A stretch of 64,000 nt of DNA. Source: Escherichia coli. GTDB lineage: Bacteria; Pseudomonadota; Gammaproteobacteria; Enterobacterales; Enterobacteriaceae. The stretch is taken from the NCBI RefSeq assembly GCF_013122565.1, contig NZ_CP053258.1. One strand, given 5' to 3'. Shown here piece after piece: positions 54,787 through 56,640 of the stretch (position 1 is the stretch's first letter; each line of letters opens with the position of its first letter). The notes under the pieces were generated by a model, which was given only the letters and a program-made list of their open reading frames with translations, was not told the DNA's origin and did not search any database. Made by a program: the position numbers and the translations under genes.

Positions 54787-56640
54787 ATGAAAATGACTTT
54801 GCCGTTTAAACCCCATGTGCTGGCGCTAATTTGCAGTGCCGGGCTTTGTGCCGCCTCTACCGGGCTATATATAAAAAGCCGCACAGTGGAAGCGCCTGTG
54901 GAACCGCAATCGACACAACTGGCTGTGTCTGACGCTGCCGCGGTTACGCTTCCTGCAACGGTTTCCGCACCTCCCGTAACACCCGCCGTCGTTAAATCCG
55001 CATTCAGCACTGCACAAATAGATCAATGGGTCGCGCCCGTCGCGCTATACCCCGACTCTCTGCTTTCACAAGTGTTAATGGCATCAACCTATCCGGCAAA
55101 CGTTGCTCAAGCAGTGCAATGGTCGCACGATAACCCACTTAAACAAGGCGATGCTGCTATTCAGGCGGTATCTGACCAGCCGTGGGACGCTAGCGTCAAA
55201 TCACTGGTGGCCTTTCCACAATTGATGGCGTTGATGGGCGAAAACCCGCAATGGGTGCAAAACCTGGGCGATGCTTTTCTGGCGCAGCCGCAGGACGTGA
55301 TGGACTCGGTACAGCGATTGCGGCAACTGGCGCAACAAACCGGCTCGCTGAAGTCATCAACCGAACAGAAAGTTATTACCACAACGAAGAAAGCTGTACC
55401 GGTAAAACAGACAGTCACGGCACCCGTCATACCATCCAATACCGTTTTAACTGCCAACCCCGTCATTACAGAGCCGGCAACAACCGTCATTTCCATTGAG
55501 CCCGCCAATCCTGATGTGGTCTATATTCCCAACTACAACCCAACCGTGGTTTACGGGAACTGGGCCAATACTGCGTATCCGCCGGTTTATCTGCCACCAC
55601 CAGCCGGAGAACCGTTTGTTGACAGCTTTGTGCGCGGATTCGGCTATAGCATGGGCGTTGCTACCACGTACGCACTATTCAGCAGCATCGACTGGGACGA
55701 CGACGATCATGACCATCATCATCATGACGATGATGATTATCATCACCACGATGGCGGTCATCGTGACGGTAATGGCTGGCAACACAACGGCGACAACATC
55801 AATATCGACGTCAACAATTTCAACCGTATCACCGGTGAGCATCTTACTGATAAGAATATGGCATGGCGGCACAATCCAAACTACCGTAATGGTGTGCCCT
55901 ATCATGATCAGGATATGGCAAAGCGGTTTCATCAAACCGATGTCAACGGCGGAATGAGTGCCACGCAGCTACCTGCTCCAACACGCGACAGCCAGCGTCA
56001 GGCGGCAGCAAGTCAGTTTCAGCAACGAACACACGCCGCCCCCGTCATTACACGAGATACCCAACGTCAGGCAGCGGCACAGCGGTTTAATGAAGCTGAA
56101 CACTATGGGAGCTATGACGACTTCCGCGACTTCAGCCGTCGCCAACCACTGATCCAGCAACAAAAGGACGCCGCTCGTCAGCGTTATCAGTCAGCTTCTC
56201 CTGAGCAGCGCCAGGCAGTTCGCGAGAGAATGCAGACTAACCCGCAGATCCAGCAGCGAAGAGAGGCAGCGCGTGAGCGCATTCAGTCCGCCTCGCCTGA
56301 GCAGCGCCAGGCAGTCCGCGAGAAAATGCAGACTAACCCACAGATCCAGCAGCGAAGAGACGCAGCGCGTGAGCGTATTCAGTCAGCCTCGCCTGAGCAG
56401 CGCCAGGTGTTTAAGGAAAAAGTACAGCAGCGCCCACTGAACCAACAGCAACGTGATAACGCCCGCCAGCGTGTTCAATCAGCATCACCTGAACAACGTC
56501 AGGTTTTTCGGGAGAAAGTTCAGGAGAGCCGCCCACAACGTCTAAACGACAGTAACCATACTGCCAGGCTGAATAACGAGCAACGGTCAGCAGTACGCGA
56601 ACGTCTCTCTGAGCGCGGAGCAAGGCGACTGGAAAGGTAA
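54787..56640 (+). CDS. yacH: Uncharacterized secreted protein YacH
   Basis: 617-aa ORF with signal peptide, a His/Asp-rich tract and C-terminal tandem Q/R-rich repeats; recognised as YacH. Confidence 0.88.
   Translation: MKMTLPFKPHVLALICSAGLCAASTGLYIKSRTVEAPVEPQSTQLAVSDAAAVTLPATVSAPPVTPAVVKSAFSTAQIDQWVAPVALYPDSLLSQVLMASTYPANVAQAVQWSHDNPLKQGDAAIQAVSDQPWDASVKSLVAFPQLMALMGENPQWVQNLGDAFLAQPQDVMDSVQRLRQLAQQTGSLKSSTEQKVITTTKKAVPVKQTVTAPVIPSNTVLTANPVITEPATTVISIEPANPDVVYIPNYNPTVVYGNWANTAYPPVYLPPPAGEPFVDSFVRGFGYSMGVATTYALFSSIDWDDDDHDHHHHDDDDYHHHDGGHRDGNGWQHNGDNINIDVNNFNRITGEHLTDKNMAWRHNPNYRNGVPYHDQDMAKRFHQTDVNGGMSATQLPAPTRDSQRQAAASQFQQRTHAAPVITRDTQRQAAAQRFNEAEHYGSYDDFRDFSRRQPLIQQQKDAARQRYQSASPEQRQAVRERMQTNPQIQQRREAARERIQSASPEQRQAVREKMQTNPQIQQRRDAARERIQSASPEQRQVFKEKVQQRPLNQQQRDNARQRVQSASPEQRQVFREKVQESRPQRLNDSNHTARLNNEQRSAVRERLSERGARRLER
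56167..56550 (+). repeat. Intragenic 96-bp (32-codon) tandem repeats in yacH
   Basis: Four consecutive units (AARERIQSASPEQRQAVREKMQTNPQIQQRRD-like); units 2 and 3 are nearly identical at the nucleotide level. Confidence 0.8.

Follow-up and report, generated by a model that had tools for sequence, protein, structure and literature searches.

In-frame intragenic tandem repeats (coding minisatellites, or variable number tandem repeats, VNTRs) are known in bacterial envelope and surface proteins. In this study we analyzed a repeat of this kind in yacH, a gene located within a 64,000-nt stretch of the Escherichia coli contig NZ_CP053258.1 (this whole stretch is referred to below as the window). 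The yacH array shares with coding VNTRs the head-to-tail arrangement of its units, a unit length that is a multiple of three, strain differences by whole units, chimeric junctions and the preservation of the reading frame; every property of an in-frame coding VNTR that could be tested was found at this locus. It differs from the class, taken as a whole and not from any single compared example, in three respects: (i) its copy-number range is narrow (2–5, mostly 3 or 4), (ii) its units are diverged rather than near-identical (60–86% identity in the window allele), and (iii) there are three unit types (A, B and C), so that alleles differ in architecture and not just in count. To our knowledge, the repeat has no link to antigenicity or adhesion. 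The array is an ordinary in-frame minisatellite and a new documented case in a gene of unknown function; a literature search, whose coverage did not extend to subscription journals, found no description of the yacH 96-bp repeat or of its polymorphism.

One previously described repeat with the same unit length is ms11, a 96-bp VNTR of an E. coli/Shigella multiple-locus VNTR analysis scheme, with alleles of 4.5–7 copies giving products of 718–958 bp (PMC8215070). It resembles the yacH array in species, unit length and copy number that varies between isolates. Identity of the two was rejected, as neither of the published ms11 primers (PMC8215070) matches the 64-kb window at three or fewer mismatches.

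Structure of the yacH repeat array

The array (56167–56550) consists of four head-to-tail units of 96 nt (32 aa each), which are read in frame 0 and correspond to aa 461–588 of YacH. Four consecutive 32-residue units had been reported here in an earlier note made from the DNA sequence, and their coordinates proved exact. Tandem Repeats Finder (TRF), applied independently, identified a repeat with a period of 96 (2.7 copies, 86% matches) at 56146–56407. The best 192-nt segment compared at a 96-nt offset contained 156 identities out of 192, against 65±3.9 (maximum 79) in 500 codon shuffles of the yacH open reading frame (ORF), which puts the repeat well beyond chance expectation.

Pairwise comparison at the DNA level revealed that units 1 and 2 form the closest pair (83/96 identical positions), followed by units 2 and 3 (72/96), 1 and 3 (67/96) and 3 and 4 (60/96). 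The term "near-identical" used in the earlier note was thus an overstatement (86% in the best pair), and the close similarity that it ascribed to units 2 and 3 is confined to their first 49 nt (46/49 by manual count), since the second halves diverge. The longest exact run at the 96-nt offset in the window allele is a 22-nt core shared by these two units; the equivalent segments of unit 1 (56194–56215) and unit 4 (56482–56503) contain two and six mismatches, respectively.

Each 32-aa unit is composed of two related 16-aa half-units, both with a proline start. The units were assigned to types A (..QAVREKMQTNPQ[IN]QQRR), B (..QVFKEKVQQRPLNQQQR) and C (..QVFREKVQESRPQRLND). Downstream of the array there is a degenerate remnant of the repeat, beginning with LNNEQRSAVRERLSE (from 56569); other Enterobacteriaceae orthologues also conserve its motif. 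The full-length AlphaFold2 model gives this C-terminal tail a predicted local distance difference test score (pLDDT) of less than 50. The coordinates of all features are collected in Table 1.

Table 1. Features of the yacH array, of the yacH gene and of its neighbours (positions in the window).
Feature	Position	Strand	Remarks
Unit 1, type A	56167..56262	+	DAARQRYQSASPEQRQAVRERMQTNPQIQQRR
Unit 2, type A	56263..56358	+	EAARERIQSASPEQRQAVREKMQTNPQIQQRR; gained or lost among ABC, AABC and AAABC alleles
Unit 3, type B	56359..56454	+	DAARERIQSASPEQRQVFKEKVQQRPLNQQQR; unit-2-like head, distinct tail; missing in AAC and AAAC alleles
Unit 4, type C	56455..56550	+	DNARQRVQSASPEQRQVFREKVQESRPQRLND; terminal, most diverged unit
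22-nt perfect core, unit 2	56290..56311	+	GCCTCGCCTGAGCAGCGCCAGG; encodes A-S-P-E-Q-R-Q
22-nt perfect core, unit 3	56386..56407	+	exact second copy
Partial unit PLIQQQK	56146..56166	+	precedes the array; homologous to the PQIQQRR end of A-type units; start of the TRF array
C-terminal tail	56551..56637	+	contains the degenerate remnant LNNEQRSAVRERLSERGARRLER at 56569–56637
yacH coding sequence	54787..56640	+	617 aa + stop; from ORF list, Pfam and RefSeq annotation of matching genes
N-terminal hydrophobic segment	54817..54873	+	VLALICSAGLCAASTGLYI; aa 11–29; predicted signal peptide or membrane anchor
DUF3300 domain	55009..55785	+	aa 75–333; PF11737
His/Asp-rich tract	55696..55761	+	DDDDHDHHHHDDDDYHHHDGGH; aa 304–325; second length-variable tract of yacH
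acnB	51835–54585	-	one neighbour of yacH
lpd	56711–58198	-	other neighbour of yacH; convergent with yacH

The DNA of the window is not that of K-12: its region 55900–56700 is 100% identical to that of E. coli 214-4 (NZ_CP025840.1), approx. 99% identical to that of O157:H7 strains and only 95.8% identical to that of K-12 derivatives.

Copy-number variation among E. coli genomes

When the region 55900–56700 was used as a megablast query, 5,425 of the 5,426 complete E. coli genomes searched gave a match. Copy number was typed from the record spans (801 or 777 nt for four units, 705 or 681 nt for three) in rows taken at even steps down the ranking, in two samples with different steps. The first (60 rows) comprised 34 four-unit and 25 three-unit alleles and one divergent lineage; the second (53 rows) comprised 29 four-unit and 23 three-unit alleles and the same divergent record. 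After pooling and removal of two duplicate rows, four units were present in 62 of 110 rows (approx. 56%) and three units in 48 (approx. 44%). A shorter, 192-nt diagnostic query was rejected for counting architectures and replaced by the record spans, because ABC and AABC alleles were not cleanly separable with it; approx. 10% of genomes, namely those with B-less alleles and a few divergent ones, were covered by it over less than 80% of its length.

Repeat number is therefore not invariant across complete E. coli genomes, and the length polymorphism that the earlier note had considered possible does exist. Three or four units occur in nearly all sampled genomes and the range in E. coli is two to five, the rarer alleles containing two (loci L015 and L018) or five units (protein P0004, locus L019). 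All sampled O157:H7 and K-12 rows had four units, and a row of sequence type 131 (H86) fully matched a three-unit query, although its length was not sized directly.

Translation of 18 retrieved E. coli genome loci, together with the protein database, revealed at least six array architectures (Table 2). In the alignment of the tails, alleles are separated by clean 32-aa gaps and differ by whole units. Strains representing the copy-number classes include M171-1 (two units), RM13322 (three), 99.1145 (four) and the strain of GCA_002516345.1 (five).

Table 2. Architectures of the array in E. coli.
Architecture	Units	Alleles
AABC	4	window, K-12, L011, L013, L014, L016, L017
ABC	3	L002–L006, L012
AAC	3	L007, L008
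AAAC	4	L010
A/B hybrid + C	2	L015; L018 (same allele with a 1-nt frameshift)
AAABC	5	P0004 (648 aa, protein database); L019 (DNA; TRF 3.7 copies, 95%)

Two disrupted genes were encountered among the retrieved loci. In E. coli HS-01 (L018, 544–2204) the 1-nt frameshift, which is either real or a sequencing error, lies within the two-unit array, and the gene is annotated in RefSeq as a pseudogene. In E. coli E69 (L023, CP089930.1, 2501–5083) the match to yacH extends over 2583 nt and the ORF is interrupted after approx. aa 375, which looks like the result of an insertion disrupting yacH.

Changes in copy number

Comparison of alleles with different copy numbers allowed the junctions to be mapped. 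Loci L002 (three units), L015 (two units) and L016 (four units) are identical in the 1380 nt of yacH that precede the array and in the 90 nt that follow it; five-unit L019 carries eight substitutions outside the array relative to this common background. Through nt 27 at least, unit 1 of L015 is identical to unit 1 of L002, and from nt 50 at the latest it is identical to unit 2 of L002, which places the crossover inside the shared 22-nt core (nt 28–49). Unit 2 of L016 represents the reciprocal product, with a B head and an A tail, and is followed in L016 by exact copies of units 2 and 3 of L002 as units 3 and 4. Junction units that are exact chimeras of their neighbours are what unequal recombination or slippage during replication is expected to leave behind. 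The earlier suggestion that the array is a substrate for copy-number change by slippage or recombination thus found support both in these chimeras, joined within the 22-nt core, and in the existence of 2-, 3- and 4-unit alleles that are otherwise identical.

In a tree based on 1.67 kb of flanking sequence, ABC alleles were present in both deep clades, and ABC, AAC and AAAC alleles were intermixed in one of them; array architectures do not track the flank tree. As read by eye, the stretch that the chimeric unit 1 of L012 shares with unit 1 of L014 (AABC) reaches further into the unit than the stretch shared by the L002 chimera and unit 1 of the window allele, which points to different crossover points in the two. 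Recurrence of the same change in different allele backgrounds is thereby supported. Some polymorphic sites, e.g. Ile/Asn in PQ[IN]QQRR, are found in unit 1 of some alleles and in unit 2 of others, and such shifting indicates conversion between units.

Our preferred explanation, which we consider probable, is an in-frame coding minisatellite whose copy number alters through unequal exchange or slippage, with a presumably near-neutral variation of the tail as the outcome. Misalignment of units would permit either unequal homologous recombination or slipped-strand mispairing at replication, leading to the gain or loss of units, and gene conversion between units and between alleles would generate the mosaic pattern. 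The rate would be low in the window allele, where perfect repeats do not exceed 22 nt, and higher in homogenised alleles (of the L016 or L019 type) with perfect runs of 53 nt or more. As every change would be a multiple of 96 nt, the frame would be kept and the tail, which sits after a putatively exported or membrane-anchored DUF3300 domain, would become longer or shorter by one helix pair. The variation is assumed to be most likely nearly neutral, with purifying selection acting on the sequence of the tail and not on its exact length.

Constraint of this kind was looked for in the seven AABC alleles. Diversity within the array (0.043) exceeds only slightly the 0.031–0.035 found elsewhere in yacH (approx. 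0.03 for the gene as a whole), and the differing array codons comprise 225 synonymous versus 105 non-synonymous ones. Since most of these differences are synonymous, the sequence of the array appears to be constrained, while its length does not.

Possible significance of tail length

The AlphaFold2 model of full-length YacH (based on an alignment of 82 sequences) contains eight helices across aa 453–579, with mean pLDDT of 77–89 in 10-residue blocks over aa 461–540. All but one of these helices start at or beside a proline (PEQRQAVRE.MQT, PQIQQRR.AARERIQS). When the tail was modelled alone the helices were kept, with a predicted template modelling score of 0.28. The tail is rich in Arg and Gln, and the 128 residues of the array include 28 K/R, 16 D/E and 29 Q, giving a net charge of +12, or approx. 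+3 per unit.

Several points weigh against the view of the array as a nearly neutral minisatellite. Tail length could matter, given the reported regulation of yacH by the Cpx system and the protamine phenotype of its deletion (PMC9600279). The two short α-helices of each unit, each started by a proline, are a prediction, and the local structure of the tail is predicted with fair confidence but its packing is not. We infer the number and the direction (gain or loss) of the events from the flank tree and the unit sequences, and part of the apparent recurrence could instead be due to recombination that carried entire alleles from one strain to another.

The alternative that survives best, although we regard it as unlikely, is that copy number is adaptively tuned, i.e. 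that the length or charge of the cationic tail sets the function of an envelope-stress protein and that lineages have been selected for different numbers of units. Reach across the periplasm, binding of anionic envelope polymers and susceptibility to cationic antimicrobial peptides are candidate properties. yacH is regulated by CpxR, its mRNA level drops with protamine and a ΔyacH mutant survives protamine better (PMC9600279), all of which would suit such a role, as would the charge gained with each unit, the independent amplification of the 16-aa motif in several genera (see below), the predominance of synonymous differences in the array, indicative of constraint, and the fact that only three and four units are common. 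Yet no phenotype has been linked to copy number, and strains with two, three and four units share an otherwise identical yacH, with no accompanying change. Moreover, the gene is a pseudogene in several successful Salmonella Typhimurium lineages (PMC3391293), and some E. coli carry a disrupted or frameshifted copy, which suggests that selection on yacH overall is weak. The more specific proposal that short proline-started helices make up the tail as a cationic, modular array, with a length functionally tuned in a Cpx-regulated envelope protein, seems to us rather improbable. If it were correct, copy number would set the reach or charge of YacH and thereby alter susceptibility to cationic antimicrobial peptides; Enterobacteriaceae lineages would have amplified the 16-aa motif independently, E. 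coli having settled mostly on three to four double units while still producing two and five.

It is very improbable that the polymorphism merely reflects collapse or expansion of the repeat during assembly. Assembly errors are known to arise at tandem repeats, and the frameshift of two-unit L018 may itself be a sequencing error, but the counted records are all RefSeq "complete genome" assemblies and the 384-nt array is unambiguous to assemble, because its units differ at many positions. Array length is also the same within a named lineage (the O157:H7 and K-12 rows), the junction units combine their neighbours precisely, the reading frame is kept in every allele, and identical variant proteins are encoded on many independent contigs.

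High-frequency on/off switching of YacH at a contingency (phase-variation) locus, for which nothing speaks beyond the presence of a tandem repeat in an envelope-protein gene, can be dismissed with near certainty, because the unit is a multiple of three (96 = 3 × 32 nt) whose gain or loss never shifts the frame, the 2-, 3-, 4- and 5-unit alleles are full-length ORFs (bar one unrelated 1-nt frameshift), perfect identity between units extends over just 22 nt in the window allele, and copy number is constant in the sampled rows of O157:H7 and K-12.

Understood as an ordinary coding minisatellite, the array adds an easily sized length polymorphism, with a ratio of four to three units of approx. 56:44 and several architectures, to a conserved E. 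coli gene. The alleles with two, three and four units in an identical yacH background, together with the closely related five-unit allele, constitute a natural allelic series, which can be used to test tail length against the reported protamine phenotype of ΔyacH. The locus also provides a clean case of unequal exchange in which the crossover could be placed within a 22-nt core. In pangenome, core-genome multilocus sequence typing and genome-wide association pipelines, the array and the His/Asp tract (see below) will appear as many yacH "alleles" or lengths, which do not signify gene disruption. General principles are left unchanged by these results.

Relatives of YacH beyond E. coli

A phmmer search yielded 9,565 representative relatives of YacH at E ≤0.001. 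Like YacH, other DUF3300 proteins have an N-terminal hydrophobic segment, a DUF3300 core and a basic, low-complexity tail, the latter often with lineage-specific short repeats. The distribution of units described here is a sketch drawn from species representatives (at least 13 loci from a contig scan). Three diverged 32-aa units are present in E. albertii and three units in the 85%-identical "E. coli" lineage SCPM-O-B-8794. In E. coli AST85 (L009, NZ_AP043644.1, 420–2279), which is probably a divergent Escherichia lineage, the tail is 78% identical to that of the window and is composed of B-like units with a period of 102 nt (34 aa). Salmonella arizonae has about one unit. Units of 16–18 aa with the form NPTxQQQQRR(D/E)xAK occur two or three times in Klebsiella, Enterobacter, Kluyvera, Raoultella and the isolate RIT691. 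In the closest non-Escherichia representative, a metagenome contig (L020), no DNA-level tandem repeat was detected in the yacH homologue except for a 9-nt micro-repeat (2.6 copies). Among the matches listed, the 32-aa unit was seen only in Escherichia; the 96-nt higher-order unit thus looks specific to this genus and amplified from an older 16-aa motif.

E. coli YacH lacks a motif that other Enterobacteriaceae orthologues keep. This sequence, (A/F)(L/F)SGN(D/E)SR(S/A)PSWQxQxQRG (SGNDSRSPSWQ in its central part), is located near the C-terminus in L024–L031 (Salmonella, Klebsiella, Enterobacter, Kluyvera, Raoultella and Buttiauxella), and is absent from both E. coli and E. albertii. On the contig L020 (4690–5484), the yacH-like gene is followed after 9 nt by a DUF2950 gene with the same orientation; in E. 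coli the downstream gene is lpd and there is no DUF2950 gene at this site.

The helix start S-P-E-Q-R-Q of YacH weakly resembles the (L)(S/T)PEQ-type motifs of DUF3106 and of CpxP/Spy/ZraP, and yacH is itself Cpx-regulated (PMC9600279). The presence of a CpxP/Spy/ZraP-like LTxxQ module in the tail was rejected, as homology was not supported by profile or by PDB sequence: a Pfam scan of the tail revealed no LTxxQ or metal-resistance family at E ≤10, a PDB sequence search at E ≤10 revealed no CpxP, Spy or ZraP chain, and the best weak match, DUF3106 (PF11304), scored 19.7 bits (E 0.0012), i.e. under the cut-off of 24.3.

YacH outside the array

The yacH ORF matches the Pfam family DUF3300 with 264.1 bits (cut-off 25, E 1.3e-78), and in matching genomes RefSeq names the gene yacH and its product "DUF3300 domain-containing protein". 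In the AlphaFold2 model, the mean pLDDT of 10-residue blocks of the core is 92–98 at aa 71–200 and 231–270 and 66–78 at aa 201–230. A Foldseek comparison of the full-length model with the PDB found no similar solved structure (best E 1.8, probability ≤0.06) and hence gave no hint of function.

The segment aa 11–29 is the sole 19-residue window of YacH with a Kyte-Doolittle mean above 1.6 (1.91), and AlphaFold2 places a helix at aa 9–22. Because this is the only strongly hydrophobic segment, YacH is probably exported or N-terminally anchored. The earlier note had spoken of a secreted protein; the single hydrophobic segment, a signal peptide or an N-terminal anchor, backs this only in part. A second transmembrane segment at aa 283–303, which would leave the tail in the cytoplasm, was rejected on account of its low hydropathy: no 19-residue window in this region reached the listing threshold of 0.8, against 1.91 for aa 11–29.

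The His/Asp-rich tract varies among E. coli alleles by in-frame insertions and deletions. The heptapeptide DDDDYHH is present three times in P0106 and absent from P0113; P0015 and P0007 differ by one or two residues (single H or D residues); and in L019 the tract has a 21-nt period according to TRF. In several S. Typhimurium strains yacH is a pseudogene owing to an 8-bp frameshifting deletion (PMC3391293, PMC10048834), which one of these papers places at codon 284 of the 540-aa LT2 protein, reading GATCATCA. As far as can be judged from its sequence, this site looks like the equivalent of the E. coli His/Asp tract.

Other duplications were also found in yacH. In two 662-aa proteins, P0001 and P0002 (19 and 3 contigs, complete genomes among them), a 45-aa (135-nt) segment just 5′ of the array, corresponding to 56038–56172 of the window (aa 418–462; APVITRDTQRQAAAQRFNEAEHYGSYDDFHDFSRRQPLTQQQKDA), is duplicated in tandem. 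Other rare in-frame duplications comprise 17 aa within unit B (P0032) and 4 aa, IQQR (P0044). Upstream of the array, the sequences TRDSQRQAAASQF (55981–56019) and TRDTQRQAAAQRF (56050–56088), 23 residues apart, form a short direct repeat, diverged at the protein level.

The strand opposite to the array (minus) contains no ORF of at least 80 aa, and an Rfam scan of 54500–57000 identified no RNA family. Between the convergent yacH and lpd genes (56658–56682) there is a GC-rich hairpin preceded by an A run and followed by a T run (AGCGGCGTGGTTAGCCGCTTTTTT), which was not listed by a consensus scan and reads like a two-way terminator.

The yacH–lpdA spacer is larger in some lineages. In L010 (2420–3400) it carries a gene for an IS110-like IS621 transposase, and in L007 and L008 it contains approx. 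170 extra bases (between 2045 and 2287). In all three loci the match to the window ends at query base 778.

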